Assembly (NCBI RefSeq): GCF_963921235.1
Contig: NC_086097.1
Coordinates: 101,620,001-101,684,000, forward strand
Origin: Mobula hypostoma
Lineage: Eukaryota
Reading direction: 5' to 3'
Length of the DNA stretch: 64,000 nt
Within the stretch, counting starts at the first letter, position 1. Each line of letters opens with the position of its first letter. Shown in pieces: positions 3,447-64,000 of the stretch. Both the position numbers and the translations under genes were made by a program. A model generated the notes under the pieces. That model did not search any database and was not told the origin of the DNA. It worked only from the letters and a program-made list of their open reading frames with translations.

Positions 3447-4445
3447 ACACGAGGTGGTAGGTGAGGTGGGATGGGTTCCCCTTGTCCTAACCTACCACCC
3501 CACCAGCCTCCGGGTCCAACATATTATTCTCCGTAACTTCCGCCACCTCCAATGGGATCCCACCACTAAGCACATCCTTCCCTACCCCCCCGCCTTGCTT
3601 TCCGCAGGGATCGCTCCCTACGCGATTCCCTTGTCCATTCATCCCCCCATCCCTCCCCACTGATCTCCCTCCTGGCACTTATCCTTTCTAAGTGCTACAC
3701 ATGCCCTCACCACCATTCAGGGCCCCAGACAGTCCTTCTAGGTGAGGCACACTTCACCTGTTGGCTGGGGTGATATACTGTGTCCGGTGCTCCCGATGTG
3801 GCCTTCTATATATTGGCGAGACCCGACACAGACTGGGAGATCGTTTCGCTGAGCACCTACGCTCTGTCCGTCGGAGAAAGCAGGATCTCCCAGTGGCCAC
3901 ACATTTTAATTCCACGTCCCATTCCCATTCTGATATGTCTATCCATGGCCTCCTCTACTGTAAAGATGAAGCCACACTCAGGTTGGAGGAACAACACCTT
4001 ATATTCTGTCTGGGTAGCCTCCAACCTGATGGCATGAACATTGACTTCTCTAACTTCCGCTAATGCCCCACCTCCCCCTTGTACCCCATCCGTTATTTAT
4101 TTATATACATTCTTTTTCTCTCTCTTCTTTTTCTCCCTCTGTCCCTTTCACTATACTCCTTGCCCATCCTCTGGGTTTTTCCCCCCTCCCCCTTTCTCCC
4201 TGGGCCTCCTGTCCCATGATCCTCTCATATCCCTTTTGCCAATCACCTGTCCAGCTCTTGGCTCCATCCCTCCCCCTCCTGTCTTCTCCTATCATTTCGG
4301 ATCTCCCCCTCCCCCTCCCACTTTCAAATCTCTTACTAGCTCTTCTTTCAGTTAGTCCTGATGAAGGGTCTTGGCTCAAACGTCAACTGTACCTCTTCTT
4401 AGAGGTGCTGCCTGGCCTGCTGCGTTCACCAGCAACTGTGATATT
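3447..4445 (+). mobile_element. 5'-truncated Penelope-like retroelement: GIY-YIG endonuclease region, pyrimidine tract and pseudo-LTR with a degenerate hammerhead
   Basis: ORF 3761..4063 GVIYCVRCSRCGLLYIGET...PDGMNIDFSNFR; PLVLTYHP motif upstream; ctgatgaagggtcttggctcaaacgtc near 4358-4384; flanked by the 14-bp direct repeat TCTACAATGAGTGA (3433-3446, 4446-4459). Confidence 0.88.
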
Positions 4446-20306: not shown

Positions 20307-20786
20307 CTACAGGAAGAGGGAGGGAAAAACAGCAGGATGAACTGAGGGGAATCATACTGGGAACCTGCCAGTAAAATGCAGTTGAGGGGAACACCAATAT
20401 TGTGGCTCACACATTCAGCTCTTGCCTGTACTTCTAACCTCATATTCTCTGCATGTATAGACACGGGATCTGGCTACGACAGGCAGCTTAGCCGAGAAGC
20501 TGGGGGTGATCTGCCTTCTTGAACTACTGCCATCCTTCAGGTGAAGGAGTTTCTAACAGTGCTGAAAGACAGGAACTCAGGATGTAGACCAATATCAGCA
20601 GGCTAAGGCTCTTGTAAGCAGAAGCTGCAGAGGGAGGGGTGGGGGTCCCTGCACCCACTGCCCTAGATCTCGGCTGGGTACTCCAAGTTAATCCAAAATT
20701 AAGCAACTGCAAGAGGCAGAGAGATCAAGATACATACACCCATTTTAATTCCAAATCAGAAAGAAAATAATTTATAAAGTTTACTG

Positions 20787-21001
20787 CAAACAACAGGAAT
20801 TCTGCAGATGCTGGAAATTCAAGCAACATACATCAAAGTTGCTGGTGAACGCAGCAGGCCAAGCAGCATCTATAGGAAGAGGTGCAGTCGACGTTTCAGG
20901 CCGAGTCCTGACGAAGGGTCTCGGCCTGAAACGTCGACTGCACCTCTTCCTATAGATGCTGCTTGGCCTGCTGCGTTCACCAGCAACTTTGATGTATGTT
21001 G
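20787..21001 (+). mobile_element. 215-bp palindromic non-autonomous Penelope-derived element, copy 1
   Basis: Perfect 82-bp inverted arms (20824-20905, 20920-21001) around a 14-nt loop; 15-bp TSD TTATAAAGTTTACTG (20772-20786, 21002-21016); right arm homologous to the pseudo-LTR at about 4354-4440. Confidence 0.92.
20904..20939 (+). ncRNA. Minimal type I hammerhead ribozyme motif (Penelope type)
   Basis: AGTC-CTGACGA-AGG(gtctcgg)CCT-GAAA-CG-TC-GACT: stem I AGTC/GACT, core CUGANGA and GAAA, GUC cleavage triplet, palindromic ACGU in place of stem III. Confidence 0.8.
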
Positions 21002-21119
21002 TTATAAAGTTTACTGATTAGATTTGGGTCTTTAGACTCTTGCGGCTTACAGAAATACATAAAAACTTAAAGAGTGCTTTGGACAGAGTAGTGAGGCAGT
21101 TGCCGTGGACCGTCTGGAC

Positions 21120-21340
21120 CTCCCAAGTCCTGATGAAGGGTCTCGGAACAAAACGTCAACTGTTTATTCCTCTGCATTGATGCTGCCTGACCTACTGAGT
21201 TCCTCCAGCATTTTGTGTGCGTTACTCTGAATTTCCTGACTGCCAGCCATCTTAAGTCTCCTCTTCATTCCCACAATGACGTCTGTCTCCGCTGCCAGGG
21301 TAAGGCGAGACACACACTAGAGGAACAACACCCTAGAATG
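21120..21340 (+). mobile_element. Degenerate Penelope pseudo-LTR with decayed hammerhead and GIY-YIG C-terminal remnant
   Basis: agtcctgatgaagggtctcggaacaaaacgtcaact...gatgctgcctgacctactgagttcctccagcattttg; later ctagaggaacaacac (LEEQH). Confidence 0.6.
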
Positions 21341-28280: not shown

Positions 28281-28772
28281 TAATTGGGCAGCACATCAGA
28301 GAGCAGAGACAGTTAGCATCTGCCCTTAGTTTACTGAGATAGGAATGGGTTTGCAGTCAATTTTGGTTACATTGGGCCTGCCATTGTCCAAGAAAACACA
28401 GTTTTGCAACGCAAACACAATTTGATGGAGGGGACTCCAAGACCCATCCTTGCAGTCACCCTGCCTTCTACCACATTGTCAAATGCACAAAATAGCACAT
28501 TGGAGTTACTGAGCAATCTCAGGAATCAGTCCTTGTGACTTAGTCAGGGAAGAGTAGGGAAGTCTTAAGGTGGGAGGGGAAAGATTTGAAGGGGATCTGA
28601 GGGGAAATCTTTTCACACAGAGGGTGATGGGTAAGTGGAATGAGCTGCCAGAGGAAGTGGTAGAGGCAGACACAATAACAAAGTTGAAAATACATTTGGA
28701 CAGGTGCACGGATATGAAAGGCTTAGAGGGATAAGGGCGAAACATGGACAAATGGAACTAGATTAGTAAGCC

Positions 28773-28987
28773 TAAACAACAGGAATTCTGCAGATGCTGG
28801 AAATTCAAGCAACATACATCAAAGTTGCTGGTGAACGCAGCAGGCCAAGCAGCATCTATAGGAAGAGGCGCAGTCGACGTTTCAGGCCGAGTCCTGACGA
28901 AGGGTCTCGGCCTGAAACGTCGACTGCGCCTCTTCCTATAGATGCTGCTTGGCCTGCTGCGTTCACCAGCAACTTTGATGTATGTTG
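28773..28987 (+). mobile_element. 215-bp palindromic non-autonomous Penelope-derived element, copy 2, inserted in a CR1 3' UTR
   Basis: Identical to copy 1 at all but 3 positions; 15-bp TSD CTAGATTAGTAAGCC (28758-28772, 28988-29002). Confidence 0.92.
28890..28925 (+). ncRNA. Minimal type I hammerhead ribozyme motif, second copy
   Basis: Sequence identical to 20904-20939. Confidence 0.8.
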
Positions 28988-29624
28988 CTAGATTAGTAAG
29001 CCACCTTGGCTGGCATGGACAAGTTGGGTTGAACACCTGTTTCCCTGCTGTCTGACTCTGTACAGTTCTGGGCACCAGGCCACAGGCACAATTCCTCCAT
29101 GTGTGATTGTATCTTTGATTAAAGGAGGACAACTGGAGTTTTCAAGGTACAAAGGAAAAATAATAGAATAGGCAGAGAGCAATTATTTCTGCTCTCAGTG
29201 AACTAAAAACTCAGGGGCCTTCCAGGGGAGAAGAACAAAATTCTCAGAATCTTTGGAAGTAGCTTCTTCACAGGAACTTGGAACTCTCTCCTCAGTAACG
29301 GGGACGGGATTGTGCAGGCGGAGAAGCAACAGGAATCGTTTCTACTTCTAAGTGTGTTTAGACAGTCTTCTCAGTGTGCATTAACTGCTTGGAATCCAAA
29401 ACAAAAGAGTCAAACTGAATTGGCAACTCACTCTCGAGGATGTGTGTGGACAGGAATGGGAAAAAAGTAATGTCCTATTGTGAGAGCAAAGGAACAAGGG
29501 GCACTGGATGGTCAGCATGGACATGCTGGGTTGAGCAGCCTGTTTCTGCACTGTATGATTGCATGACTAAATACAAAAGGTACCAGTCCTATGGGAACAC
29601 TACCTCCTCGCTCCACTCCACGTC

Positions 29625-31049: not shown

Positions 31050-31235
31050 CATGAGAAAAATCTGCAGATGCTGGAAATCCAAAGCAACACACACAAAATG
31101 CTGGAGGAACTCAGCAGGTCAGGCAGTGTCTGTGGAAAAGAGTAAACAGTCGATGTTTTGGGCCGAGACCCTTCTTCAAGACGGGTGAAAGGTCTCGGCC
31201 CAAAAAGTTCACTGTTTACTCTTTTCCATATGGAT
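31050..31235. mobile_element. Older palindromic Penelope pseudo-LTR-derived element
   Basis: tggaaaagagtaaacagtcgatgttttgggccgagacc...ggtctcggcccaaaaagttcactgtttactcttttcca inverted pair; same leader as the 215-bp element. Confidence 0.7.
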
Positions 31236-38397: not shown

Positions 38398-41300
38398 TTT
38401 CTTTCTTTTTAAATCTTTTTATTGAGTAAGTATACAAAAAAGGTAAGCCATATAAACATTAATACAATGTTAAAGTATAATAAAATTCCCAAAGATAACA
38501 ATACCAAAAAGAAAATACTACAAACAATGTAATTTAAGCATAAGAAACCAAGATAACATAATAGTATACTAAATTTTATATATATCAATGGAAAAAAAGA
38601 AAAAAAAAACCCCAAAAAAAAACCCACCGTGCAGCTAACTAAAAGCAAAGCAAAGCAATGGGCTAACTTGAAACCAAACAGAGTTAAACTTAAAATCACG
38701 TCCTCAATCCCGACCTCCATTAAAACAGTGAAAAAAAAAACAAGAAGGGTAAATATTACATTAAATGAAAATATCGAATAAAAGGTCCCCAAATCTGTTC
38801 AAATTTAAATGAAGAATCATAAAGGTTACTTCTAATTTTCTCCAAATTCAAACATAAAATCGTCTGAGAAAACCAAAAAAAGGTAGTTGGAGCATTAAGC
38901 TCTTTCCAATGTTGTAAAATACATCTTTTCGCCATTAAAGTAAGAAATGCAATCATTCTACGGGCTGAAGGGGAAAGATTACTAGAAATTTTAGGTAGTC
39001 CAAAGATAGCAGTAATAGGGTGAGGAGAGATATCTATATTTAATACCTTAGAAATAATATTGAAAATATCTCTCCAAAAAGTTTCCAAAGTAGGGCAAGA
39101 CCAAAACATATGAGTTAAAGAGGCTATCTGCCCCGAACATCTATCACAGAAAGGATTAATATGCGAGTAAAAACGCGCTAACTTATCTTTGGACATATGT
39201 GCTCTATGAACCACTTTAAATTGAATTAGGGAATGTTTAGCACAAATAGAGGAAGTATTAACTAATTGTAAAATCTGCCCCCAATCATCCACAGAAATGG
39301 TAAGCCCCAATTCCTGTTCCCAATCTACCCTAATCTTATCAAATGGAGCTTTCCTAAGTTTCATAATAATATTATAAATCATAGCCGATGCACCTTTCTG
39401 ACATGGATTAAGGTTAATTATCGAATCTAAAATATATATAGGAGGAAGCATTGGAAAGGAAGAAAGTATAGTACTTAGGAAATTTCTAACTTGTAAATAT
39501 CTAAAAAAATGTATTCTTGATAAGTTATATTTATTAGATAATTGTTCAAAAGACATAAGGGAACCATCTAAAAATAAATCCAAAAACCGTAAAATACCCT
39601 TAGTCTTCCAAGTTTGAAAAGCGCGATCCGTAAAAGAGGGAGGAAAAAATATGTTACCTAAAATAGGAATCGCTAACCCGAATTGATTAAGATCAAAAAA
39701 TTTTCTGAATTGAAACCAAATACGCAAAGCATATTTAACTATCGGGTTAGAGACCTGCTTAAGGCGTTTCGAATCAAAAGGAAGAGAGGAACCTAAAATA
39801 GAACCAAGTGTATAACCCTGAACAGATTGTAATTCCAATGCTACCCATTTAGGAATAGATAGTATGTCCCGGTCAAGTAACCAAAATTTCATATGTCGAA
39901 TATTAATAGCCCAATAATAAAATCTAAAGTTAGGTAATGCTAAACCTCCATCTCTCTTAGCTTTCTGTAAATGTATTTTACCCAGTCTCGGATTCTTATT
40001 CTGCCAAATAAATGAAGAAATTTTAGAGTCAACTTTATCAAAAAAAGATTTAGGAACGAAAATTGGTAATGCCTGAAACACATATAAAAATTTTGGCAAA
40101 AAAAACATCTTAACTGCATTAATACGACCAATCAAAGTTAAATATAAGGGAAACCATTTAGATGAAAGTTGAGTAATATGGTCTATTAATGGTAAAAAGT
40201 TAGTCTTAAATAAATCTTTATGTTTACAAGTAATTTTAATCCCAAGATATGAAAAGTAATTATTAATCAATTTAAATGGAAATTTATAATATAAGGGAAG
40301 ATGTTTATTAATCGGAAAAAGTTCACTCTTACTAAGATTTAATTTATAACCTGAGAAAAGACCAAATTGTGCTAATAACTCTAAAACAGCAGGAATGGAT
40401 CTCTCAGGATTAGAAATATATAAAAGTAAATCATCAGCATAGAGTGATAATTTATGGGACTTTAATCCCCGAGTTATCCCAGTAATATTTGAAGATTCTC
40501 GAATAGCAATTGCAAGAGGTTCTAATGCAATATCAAATAATAGGGGACTAAGAGGACAGCCTTGTCGAGTACCACGAAAGAGAGGAAAAAAAGGTGAGTT
40601 TAAAGAGTTAGTACGAACCGAGGCTACAGGGGAGTGATATAACAGTTTAATCCAGGATATAAATTTCAAGCTAAAATTAAACATTTCAAGCACCTTAAAT
40701 AAATAAGGCCATTCTACTCTATCAAAAGCTTTCTCGGCATCTAAAGAAATAACACACTCAGGAACATTTTGTGAGGGAGTATAAACGATATTTAACAATG
40801 TACGAATATTATAAAAAGAGTAACGACCTTTAATAAAACCCGTTTGGTCTTCCAAAATAATAGAAGGAAGTACTTTTTCTAGTCTATTTGCTAATAACTT
40901 AGAAAAAACTTTAGAATCAACATTTAATAAAGATATTGGTCTATAAGATGCACATTGAGCAGGGTCTTTATCCTTCTTTAGTATTAAAGAAATTGATGCT
41001 CTATTAAAAGATTCCGGAAGTTTACCAAGTTTCAAAGAAGCCTCAAAAACCTTATAGAGCCAAGGAATCAATAAAGAAGCAAAACATTTATAAAATTCAA
41101 CGGTAAACCCATCAGGGCCAGGAGCTTTCCCCAGATTCATAGAAAAAATAACATTCTTAATCTCATCCATTGTAATGGAAGTATCTAATAAAGAAGACAT
41201 ATCCTGTGAAATCTGAGGGAAGTCTAACTTATCTAAAAAATCATTCATATATTTAGAATCTCGAGGAGACTCTGATTGATATAAAGAAGAATAAAAATCA

Positions 41301-53892: not shown

Positions 53893-54747
53893 ATGGAAGA
53901 AGGCAAAAGAAAGGAAATTATAGACCAGTTGGGAAAGTGTTGGAGTTCATTATTAAGGATGAGCTTTTGAGGTACCAGGGTGGACAAAGGAGAGGCAGTG
54001 GATGTTACTTACTTGTATTTTTAAGATGGTAGATGGCTGACTTTGAAATTGTCTTAATGTAGCAGTTAAAGTTAATTCAAAGTCCACCACAACACCAAGG
54101 TTGCTGGCTTGGTTTGTGTATTGTAACAACAGGGATTCAAAGTGAGTACTGACTTTTAATCACTCTTTTTTAGCACCAAAAGCAATTATCTCAGTTTTCT
54201 CTTTGTTTAACTAGAGGAAATTTTGACTCAGTCAAACAGTGATTTGTTCAATACAGAGTAAAAAGTTCCTCGAAAATGGAGACGCAGGGGCATAAGAAAA
54301 GGCATTTGGACCATTTGCTTTCATCGGCCATCAAGTACAAGAGCTGGGACGTTAAGTTACAACTTTACAAGGTGCAGATGAGACACAGTTGGAGGAGTGC
54401 ACGCAGTTCCGGGCACACAGTTCTGGCAAGGATATCAGGAAAGTTTCTGGATCGGGGGGCTTGGGTTACATGAAGAAGCTGGACAGGTTGGGCCTCTTTT
54501 CTCAGGGTAAAGGGGTCTGAGGGATGACTTTATAAAACCCCAACAGGCATAGATAAGATGAATGGTCACAGTCTTTTCCCCAGGGTAGGGCTATCTAAAA
54601 CTAGAGGGCATAGATTTAAGTTGAGAACCCCTGGTATTAGAAGTCCTCTGCTGTGGCCTGCACCAGAGTTTCTGGTGTGGACAGGAACCCAGAGTATCCG
54701 GAGCTGAAAGAGCTGCCCACCAAAGGATAGAGCAGAAGTGTGGCGGT

Positions 54748-55649
54748 GCTGTCCCGATCCCATTCACTCACGATCCGGCGCTATCTGGGTCCCATCCACT
54801 CGCGATCCGGCGCTATCTGGGTCCCATCCACTCGCGGTCGGGCGCTGTCCCGGTCCCGTTCACTCGCGATCCAGCGCTGTCCCAGTCCCGTTCACTCGCG
54901 ATCCGGCGCTATCTGGGTCCCATCCACTCGCGGTCGGGCGCTGTCCCGGTCCCATTCACTCGCGATCTGGTGCTGTCCCGGTCCCATTCCCTTGCGATCC
55001 AGCGCTGTCCCGGTCCCATTCCCTCGTGATCCAGCGCTGTCCCGGTCCCGTTCACTCGCGATCCAGCGCTGTCCCGGTCCCATTCCCTTGCGATCCAGCG
55101 CTGTCCCGGTCCCATTCCCTCGTGATCCAGCGCTGTCCCGGTCCCGTTCACTCGCGATCCAGCGCTGTCCCAGTCCCGTTCACTCACGATCCGGCGCTGT
55201 CCCGGTCCCGTTCACTCGCGATCCAGCGCTGTCCCAGTCCCGTTCACTCGCGATCCGGCGCTATCTGGGTCCCATCCACTCGCGGTCGGGCGCTGTCCCG
55301 GTCCCGTTCACTCGCGATCCGGTGCTGTCCCGGTCCCATTCCCTTGCGATCCAGCGCTGTCCCGGTCCCGTTCACTCGTGATCCAGCGCTGTCCCAGTCC
55401 CGTTCACTCGCGATCCGGCGCTATCTGGGTCCCATCCACTCGCGGTCGGGCGCTGTCCCGGTCCCGTTCACTCGCGATCCGGTGCTGTCCCGGTCCCATT
55501 CCCTTGCGATCCAGCGCTGTCCCGGTCCCGTTCACTCGTGATCCAGCGCTGTCCCAGTCCCGTTCACTCGCGATCCGGCGCTGTCCTGGTCCCGTTCACT
55601 CGCGATCAGGCGCTGTCCTGCTCCCGTTCACTCGCGATCAGGCGCTGTC
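54748..55649. repeat. CpG-rich minisatellite, about 28 x 32 bp (GCTGTCCCGGTCCCGTTCACTCGCGATCCRGC)
   Basis: Direct tandem copies; variant units recur at 96-bp and 160-bp spacing. Confidence 0.95.
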
Positions 55650-56461
55650 CATTTTACCTGCCACGGGAGACTTTACCAATCTTTTTGCTAGTGGTGTATA
55701 TTCCACCTCAGGGTAATGTCAAACAGGCTTTAGATGAACTGAGCGATGTAACCAAGAGGAATGAAACAGCACACCCTGATGTATTCCCCATCATTAACTA
55801 GGCCAGCTTGATAAGGTCACTAATAATTATTACCAACAATTCACCTATAGTACCAGAGGAGGTAACACATTGAACCACTATTACACTAAGACCAAGAGTG
55901 CCTACTGTGCTATCCCACGTCCACACCTTGGAAAGTCTGATCACCTGGCTGTACTTCTGCTCCCTGAGTATAGGCAGAGACTGAAGACTGCAGCACTGGT
56001 AGTGAGGACCAAGAATGTATGGACAAGGGAAGCACAGGAGCATCTACAGGACTGCTTTGAATCAGTGGACTGGATTATGTTCAGGGAGTCATCTTGGAAT
56101 CTGGATGAGTATGCCACAGTTGTCACGGACTTCATTAAAACCTATGTGAATGAGTGTGTGCCTATGAAAACTTGCTGTACATTCCCAAACCAAAAGACAT
56201 GGATGAACCAGAAACTTCCAGCTTGCTAAGGGCTAGATCTGTGGCATTTAAGCCTGGTGATCTAGGTCTGTAAAGAAAGCTAGGTATGATTTGCGGAGGG
56301 CTACTTCAGGAGTGAAGAGACAATTTTGAATGAGGTTGGAGGCGACATTGGATGTACGGCACCTCTGGCAGGGTTTGCAAGACATTACTTCCGACAAAGC
56401 AAAACCCAATAGCATGAATGGCAGTGATGTTTCACTACCAGATGAACTCAACACCTTCTAA

Positions 56462-56720
56462 GGTGCTTTGCTTTTAGTTAGTTGCACGGTGGGTTTTTTT
56501 TTGGGGGTTTTTTTTTCTTTTTTTTCCATTGATATATATATAAAATTTAGTATACTATTATGTTATCTTGGTTTTTTATGTTTAAATTACATTGTAGTAT
56601 TTTTTTTGGTATTGATACCTTCTGGAATTTTATTATATTTTAACATTGTATTAATGTTTATATGCTTTACCTTTTTGTATACTTATTCAATAAAAAGATT
56701 TAAAAAGAAAGAAAGAAAGG
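56462..56720 (+). mobile_element. 3' UTR fragment of the same L1 family as 38398-42454
   Basis: Near-identical reverse complement of about 38400-38655; ends AATAAAAAGATTTAAAAAG(AAAG)n. Confidence 0.88.
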
Positions 56721-62526: not shown

Positions 62527-62827
62527 CTGTGGAAAGCAGTGAGAAGTGTAAATCGTTACCAAGTAAGTGTCAAACATGCAAACCACATCCACCCCCAACT
62601 CCCCACCCACTGTTGTCCCCCAAACACATGGCTATAAACTTAACCGAGAGCATCAGCACCAGATTGGACCCGTGAACCCACTGAATCATCAAGCATTCGT
62701 GCGACCTTGGCCAGACACCCTTCTTGTTTCGATCTCTTAGGAGAAGATACAGCAGCTTGGAAGACCATATGATCAGAAGTCCACCCGGCTGCTAACAGAC
62801 TTCTGAAATAATCATTACTTTCTAATC

Positions 62828-64000
62828 CCGCACTACACTACAGTCACCGTACCATACATCACACCGCACTACAGTCTCCGTACCGTACGTCACACCACAC
62901 TATGAGACTGTACGTCACACCACACTACAGTCACTGTACCGTACATCACACCGCACTACAGTCTCCGTACTGTACGTCACACCACACTACAGTCACTGTA
63001 CCGTACGTCACACCGCACTACAGTCTCCGTACCATACGTCACACCACACTGAGACTGTACATCACACCACACTACAGTCACTGTACCGTACATCACACCG
63101 CACTACAGTCTCCGTACTGTACATCACACCACACTACAGTCACTGTACCGTACGTCACACCGCACTACAGTCTCCGTACTGTACGTCACACCGCACTACA
63201 GTCTCCGTACCGTACATCACACCGCACTACAGTCTCCGTACCGTACGTCACACCACACTACAGTCTCCGTACCGTACATCACACCGCACTACAGTCTCCG
63301 TACCGTACGTCACACCACACTACGAGACTGTACGTCACACCACACTACAGTCACTGTACCGTACATCACACCGCACTACAGTCTCCGTACTGTACATCAC
63401 ACCACACTACAGTCACTGTACCGTACGTCACACCGCACTACAGTCTCCGTACTGTACGTCACACCGCACTACAGTCTCCGTACCGTACATCACACCGCAC
63501 TACAGTCTCCGTACCGTACGTCACACCACACTACAGTCTCCGTACCGTACATCACACCGCACTACAGTCTCCGTACCGTACGTCACACCACACTATGAGA
63601 CTGTACGTCACACCACACTACAGTCACTGTACCGTACATCACACCGCACTACAGTCTCCGTACTGTACGTCACACCACACTACAGTCACTGTACCGTACG
63701 TCACACCGCACTACAGTCTCCGTACCATACGTCACACCACACTGAGACTGTACGTCACACCACACTACAGTCACTGTACCGTACATCACACCGCACTACA
63801 GTCTCCGTACTGTACATCACACCACACTACAGTCACTGTACCGTACGTCACACCGCACTACAGTCACTGTACCGTACGTCACACCGCACTACAGTCTCCG
63901 TACTGTACGTCACACCGCACTACAGTCTCCGTACCGTACATCACACCGCACTACAGTCTCCGTACCGTACGTCACACCACACTACAGTCTCCGTACCGTA
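62828..64000. repeat. Minisatellite, about 31-bp unit (CACACCRCACTACAGTCWCYGTACYGTACRT) with shorter GAGAC variants; runs off the window
   Basis: Direct tandem copies over more than 1.1 kb. Confidence 0.95.

Follow-up and report, generated by a model that had tools for sequence, protein, structure and literature searches.

Short hammerhead-bearing palindromes in Mobula hypostoma are probably doubly truncated, head-to-head Penelope-like insertions

The window, a stretch of 64,000 nt from the genome of Mobula hypostoma, contains two insertions of 215 bp (copies 1 and 2, Table 1), both with a perfect 82-bp inverted repeat around the same 14-nt loop. The sequence agrees with the original prediction of two such units, arms and loop included, each flanked by a 15-bp target site duplication (TSD), and also with their independent insertion, since each copy has an exact TSD of its own. 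The copies differ at their first base and at both positions of a mirrored pair (20883/20942 in copy 1), three sites in all; this pair is a subfamily site (28869/28928 in copy 2) that is polymorphic among ordinary fold-backs, with 49 C, 73 T and 2 A in 124 arms. The predicted hairpin of the 215-mer reaches -182.9 kcal/mol (z of -28.9). Each unit consists of a left arm of 119 nt, antisense to the element, and a right arm of 98 nt in sense, with a 2-nt overlap. Expressed in d, which counts bases starting at the end with the tail, the left arm covers d1-117 in antisense and the right arm d133-36 in sense, overlapping by AG; hammerhead helix I begins at d133, and the predicted hammerhead cut is at d101/102. 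Microhomology at the junction is limited to these 2 nt, or to 4 of 5 positions if one mismatch is allowed. The window also contains minisatellite arrays at 54648-55747, 62800-64000 and 2428-2755, with units of 32, 31 and 41 bp, respectively, and an A/T-rich repeat of about 250 bp present as an inverted pair 18 kb apart (38398-38652 and 56464-56714, 90-97% alike).

Table 1. Coordinates of the fold-back insertions and related Penelope-like features; positions refer to the window except for the last two rows.
Feature	Position	Strand	Length	Remarks
Longer 5'-truncated, tail-less related Penelope-like copy	3447-4445	+		Broken GIY-YIG end and pLTR with hammerhead
TSD of the 3447-4445 copy	3433-3446/4446-4459		14 bp	
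Copy 1	20787-21001		215 bp	With its own exact 15-bp TSD
Left TSD, copy 1	20772-20786		15 bp	Identical to 21002-21016
Right TSD, copy 1	21002-21016		15 bp	
Penelope 'tail' in reverse complement	20787-20823	-	37 nt	Likely spans the interval separating two RT start sites
Left arm, copy 1	20824-20905	-		Antisense 5'-truncated pLTR, continuous with tail; ends within hammerhead loop II
Right arm, copy 1	20904-21001	+		Sense pLTR, from first base of hammerhead helix I to tail-less end
Arm-arm overlap, copy 1	20904-20905		2 nt	AG
Minimal type I hammerhead motif	20904-20939	+		Cut predicted after 20935; hairpin predicted to sequester the motif
Copy 2	28773-28987	+	215 bp	Same junction as copy 1; other mirrored subfamily variant at 28869/28928
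Left TSD, copy 2	28758-28772		15 bp	Identical to 28988-29002
Right TSD, copy 2	28988-29002		15 bp	
Long fold-back L061	G000:C1:397077-400761			Tails at both ends, no evident TSD
Long fold-back L062	G000:C1:1823809-1827430			Differs from L061 at mirrored subfamily sites

The arm of the 215-bp unit is 88% identical to positions 4375-4442, at the end of the GIY-YIG copy in the window, which confirms the Penelope origin originally proposed from its likeness to the pLTR of that copy. The GIY-YIG domain of this fragment was recognised by Pfam above the curated cut-off (E of 2.7e-5), and an open frame of 679 aa in L062 gave matches, both below the Pfam curated cut-off, to RVT_1 (E of 2.5e-5) and GIY-YIG (E of 6e-4). 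The parental ORF comprises a reverse transcriptase (RT) and, at its C terminus, a GIY-YIG endonuclease (EN), the arrangement of EN+ Penelope-like elements (PLEs), with a three-Cys motif in the linker between both domains. The available text of PMC8557442 describes a Zn-finger-like or Cys motif separating RT and EN in Neptune and also in Nematis, and the linker motif would tentatively place the parent in one of these clades rather than in Poseidon. Natural full-length copies show, in this order, the hammerhead, 66 nt, the 37-nt tail and the ORF region, and in full-length copies L197 and L200 the 37-nt stretch lies in sense directly 3' of the pLTR. The stretch that the original prediction described as a 37-nt leader is thus present, but it reads as the 3' tail of Penelope in reverse complement and is no leader. 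Full-length copy L200 begins at about d134, and a partial-tandem pLTR, in which the tailed pLTR continues in sense some 765 nt upstream of the ORF query, was found at 8 of 24 loci. Exact matches to a 38-mer taken at the tailed end number 31,738 in the 3.48-Gb genome.

We compared the apex of the hairpin by eye with the definition of the metazoan PLE minimal type I hammerheads, described in the available text of PMC4209133 as having a CUGANGA plus GAAA core, no real helix III and a palindromic ACGU for dimers. The conserved core, helices I and II and a palindromic helix III region are all present, so that the complete minimal hammerhead claimed for the apex exists as a motif, its cleavage after C20935 being a prediction. 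The core is thus recognisable by eye, but a search of the 215-mer against Rfam at E<=1 gave no match to any hammerhead model; its matches to mir-3926 and mir-2007 are far under the gathering scores and reflect the hairpin alone. The core and the palindromic ACGU are shared with the minimal hammerheads of PMC4209133, unlike pair 10.1-11.1, which in young copies contains a U where the conserved G10.1-C11.1 pair wants a C that older copies do contain; besides, the motif is here predicted to be buried. Indeed, the long hairpin and the ribozyme fold are mutually exclusive, as had been noted, and this had led to the proposal of a built-in switch. In a nearest-neighbour model of the monomer fold, forcing helices I and II raised the predicted ensemble energy 45.3 kcal/mol above the free fold in the full RNA, and 36.1 kcal/mol in a transcript ending just past helix I, against a predicted cost of only 5.6-8.2 kcal/mol without the left arm. 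Because the left arm is transcribed first, the model predicts an inactive ribozyme at every stage on that strand, even in the nascent transcript, and the opposite strand of the 215-mer does not contain a complete sense hammerhead. A switch was rejected on these predicted energies. In our reading the hammerhead is carried along with the pLTR, and the prediction is that it does not act in the fold-back. Older hammerhead-bearing ends from another Penelope-like family are situated at 21126-21236 and 31061-31214 of the window, the first of them starting at helix I and only 222 bp from copy 1.

The original prediction took the 215-bp unit for a discrete non-autonomous family, retrozyme-like, whose hairpin transcript would be mobilised in trans. 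In its favour, the 24-mer spanning the exact junction has 145 matches in the genome, the best 40 of 961 blast candidates obtained with the 215-mer are full-length at 93-100% identity, and the window itself contains two copies 8 kb apart, when arithmetic from the 145 matches gives 0.05 expected same-junction pairs within 8 kb for the 215 class alone, and more over many classes. Nevertheless, the best blast matches, of which the 30 that were fetched showed TSDs and uniform polarity, had been chosen by likeness to the query, and the appearance of a uniform family vanished in samples chosen by junction or by position. A pattern search that accepted all fold-backs whose arm anchors are no more than 110 nt apart found 13,728 short fold-backs genome-wide, and only 2 with the reversed-pattern control; the 215 junction amounts to about 1% of them, it is outnumbered by another junction with 447 matches and it is absent among the 50 fold-back matches listed, which contain many junctions. 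For the junction-chosen sample, 29 of the 145 loci were picked by junction alone, excluding loci already fetched. The tail was at the left in 12 and at the right in 14 of them, one was complex, and in two (L133 and L135) the arms belonged to other Penelope-like families, so that more than one family contains this junction. The arms of same-junction copies carry several subfamily haplotypes, mirrored across both arms, and the one-sided variants shared among 55 such copies lie for the most part at CpG, as do 16 of 22 entries, or at positions already known to be polymorphic.

To sample the insertions by position, we took tailed ends in positional order, 90 of 100 listed places from each of two lists, which left 171 ends after removing overlaps and places too near the locus edge; this sample covers the initial 71 Mb of a single contig and is biased towards young copies, being picked by the exact young tail motif. 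An inverted, truncated head-to-head copy was found at 91 of the 171 ends, the remainder being single copies (65) or running off the fetched stretch (15); some six of the single copies look as if they were inverted, complex or shortened in the reference, but their classification was kept. The 91 inverted insertions have 88 distinct junctions, none of them the d117/d133 junction of the 215-bp unit, which is the variability in junction and length that the original prediction itself had named as contrary to a family. Fixed length, junction and polarity, as expected of copies from one master, are thus missing, with the tail on either side and a junction shared by 145 of 13,728 fold-backs. These observations largely refute a discrete 215-bp family, which we regard as extremely unlikely, and a retrozyme-like family with a ribozyme switch is not supported.

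The inverted insertions share a series of regularities. TSDs flank 80 of the 85 complete inverted events, and the 117 TSDs found in all have a median of 14 bp, most of them being of 13-16 bp. The second arm never reaches the tail (0 of 85 complete inverted events) and, in 69 of the 80 events with TSD, ends 32-46 nt from the tail end (d32-46). Exactly one tail was found at 26 of the 29 junction-chosen loci, the other three being complex or from other families; that is, at all 26 simple loci, when an independent choice of start sites would give one tail in half of them. This argues that the two start sites are not chosen independently. Both arms of an insertion agreed at 432 of 475 comparisons of variable sites (91%; 62 fold-backs), versus 62% after shuffling, a value that none of 2000 shuffles reached, and in the same-junction class at 167 of 194, versus 66% shuffled. 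Arms disagreed at the other 43 of the 475 sites, and a few copies (L017 and L132) have arms from different subfamilies, so a single RNA is not always the template. In the 91 inverted events, the tail-less arm reached further inward in 53 and the tailed arm in 30, with both level in 8, and the overlap at the junction was mostly of -3 to +4 nt.

The cDNA ends (n = 247) are not distributed evenly. As many as 41 are concentrated in the 6 nt of d131-136, the 5' edge of the hammerhead (6.8 per nt), with 21 more at d126-130 and 12 at d144-148; there is 1.0 end per nt at d149-165 and only 0.15 per nt at d166-250. Since cDNAs stop at the hammerhead edge, the occurrence of a hammerhead at the apex does not require selection for a switch. 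Cleaved RNA was discarded as the usual template, because the cut site, a palindromic spot at d101-103, accounts for only 7 of the 247 ends, compared with 62 at d126-136. In three copies (L059, L083 and L104) the arms start at the predicted hammerhead cut site, two of them without microhomology; these few could record cleaved templates. Two further short copies, L035 and L074, have the same end point followed by the same flank, as if they were inside another repeat.

The feature is therefore real and of a known kind, the Penelope-like pattern of an inverted truncated pLTR with one tail and a TSD. Each 215-bp unit probably represents a doubly 5'-truncated, head-to-head insertion of a very abundant Penelope-like retrotransposon, likely generated afresh each time by two-sided (twin) priming on one element RNA and not copied from a 215-nt master. 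Reading the mechanism from the genomic products alone, we propose that the RT/GIY-YIG protein would cut both target strands around 14-15 bp apart, which would give the TSD. One target end would prime cDNA synthesis at the outer start site of the RNA, producing the tailed arm, and the other would prime at the inner site, 37 nt upstream, producing the tail-less arm. At least one of the cDNAs would run off at a likely 5' end of the RNA, in most cases the hammerhead's 5' edge; transcripts would start there, approximately 130 nt from the RT start sites, and short cDNAs would run off at that point. The available text of PMC2377424 describes an internal promoter in Penelope. Both cDNA 3' ends would then be joined by microhomology of 0-4 nt or by a few added bases, and in the 215-bp unit one cDNA would have stopped on the base that opens helix I, pairing within loop II of the other. 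As for the protein, we lean towards a dimer that primes both target ends on one RNA, obligately one per start site, with cDNAs running off at transcript starts at the hammerhead edge and being joined afterwards. For PAc, a Poseidon element from Anolis carolinensis, the available text of PMC11167929 reports that RT starts at two internal sites, which delimit the tail, and that both target strands are cut and extended, and predicts a dimer; it also reports that hammerhead cleavage is dispensable for insertion and that, in vitro, extension by RT from both target strands takes sense RNA as its template.

This last result speaks against self-priming, in which the second arm would come from one cDNA or antisense template that folds back and is extended, as for rotifer Penelope, and which the available text of PMC3846280 proposes, on an antisense template, for such junctions. 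A snap-back would account for the mirrored arms as well, and it would allow both the 8 nearly symmetric junctions and the 30 whose tailed arm is longer inward. However, in the other 53 of 91 events, as in both window copies, the tail is on the arm that is shorter inward, and a single self-folding cDNA cannot supply both arms; moreover, the second arm halts at the inner start site and not just anywhere. We thus consider self-priming quite improbable. A different question is whether, with junctions formed afresh, a minority of the fold-backs, perhaps including some 215-mers, are re-copied as units and give rise to small clonal subgroups. A minus-strand transcript of the 215-mer would carry both RT start sites, even though the 82-bp hairpin is predicted to bury the inner one. 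The long fold-backs L061 and L062, 1.4 Mb apart and with different flanks, share a junction that was found only twice genome-wide; however, no private variant is common to their four arms, a single shared state is frequent (33%), and they share only two private variants in the ORF part, against seven comparison copies. No clonal subgroup is evident among 55 same-junction copies either. We consider occasional re-copying of a fold-back less likely than not.

The accumulation of ends at the 5' edge of the hammerhead could also result from RNA processing, that is, a 3' splice site or stalling of RT, instead of from transcription starts; this would alter one step of the scheme and not the verdict. 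A branch-site-like motif, a pyrimidine tract and an AG lie directly upstream of helix I (in L197, and at 4330-4356 of the window), the 12 ends at d144-148 coincide with the putative branch A, and in D. virilis the Penelope intron extends as far as the 5' end of helix I according to the available text of PMC4209133. Against processing, 11 of the 14 single copies ending at d129-137 have a TSD within 4 nt, with no upstream exon, and 16 of the 49 unambiguous ends at 120-165 nt fall exactly on pyrimidine-purine steps, as expected for Pol II starts, compared with 7 of the 46 positions, a post hoc comparison. Processing is on these grounds a tenable reading, if not a probable one. The same stretch upstream of helix I contains initiator-like steps where cDNA ends cluster.

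The value of these insertions lies in the counts: one tail only, mirrored arms, asymmetry of the inner ends, and ends at the hammerhead edge. They bear on how inverted pLTRs form, an open step of Penelope retrotransposition, and yield predictions for the in vitro system. If twin priming on one element RNA is correct, the fold-backs, in tens of thousands, would preserve in fossil form those steps of Penelope integration that are still missing, and priming by a dimer on one RNA would replace the published idea of antisense self-priming for inverted pLTRs. In practical terms, annotation would mistake such hairpins for MITEs, miRNA precursors or new families, and at least 13,728 near-perfect palindromes may feed double-stranded RNA silencing.

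In the twin priming of LINE-1, two target ends prime on one RNA, leaving an inversion joined by microhomology and a TSD; L1 primes on the poly(A) and on an internal site that matches the target, and its arms do not overlap. By contrast, both primings would occur here at fixed sites of the element, 37 nt apart, so that two copies of one sequence would form a palindrome. Among the main texts of openly available papers that were searched, we found no statement of twin priming for Penelope inversions, a model that may already be in print elsewhere. Likewise, searching by title or the start of the abstract, we found no short fold-backs of this kind in cartilaginous fish.

Among Penelope-like systems, EN+ insertions are described in the available text of PMC8557442 and PMC3846280 as having an inverted, 5'-truncated pLTR, an optional tail of 30-40 bp and a TSD. 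The fold-backs share with these canonical EN+ PLEs the head-to-head inverted pLTR, the tail at one end, the TSD and the short overlap at the junction, together with a parent containing RT plus a GIY-YIG domain at the C terminus and a hammerhead in the pLTR. They differ in that both arms are cut to about 100-120 nt and the ORF is gone, the unit resembling a MITE-sized hairpin, in a copy number in the tens of thousands, and in TSDs mostly of 13-16 bp instead of the 8-10 bp of rotifer PLEs. The non-LTR retrozymes described in the available text of bioRxiv 10.64898/2026.07.22.740005 are also short, non-coding, PLE-derived and hammerhead-bearing, but they are head-to-tail tandems with a hammerhead per unit. 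No head-to-tail tandem units were found here, where the insertions are single and head-to-head, with TSDs and no fixed unit. As far as the available text of PMC11167929 allows the comparison, the similarity to PAc includes two start sites bounding the tail, the cutting and extension of both strands, and a hammerhead located upstream of these sites by about 70-110 nt, whose cleavage is dispensable in PAc; the parent found here differs in its RT-EN Cys motif, a tentative indication of Neptune or Nematis rather than Poseidon. That text leaves open the steps following priming, on which the counts from the fold-backs bear.
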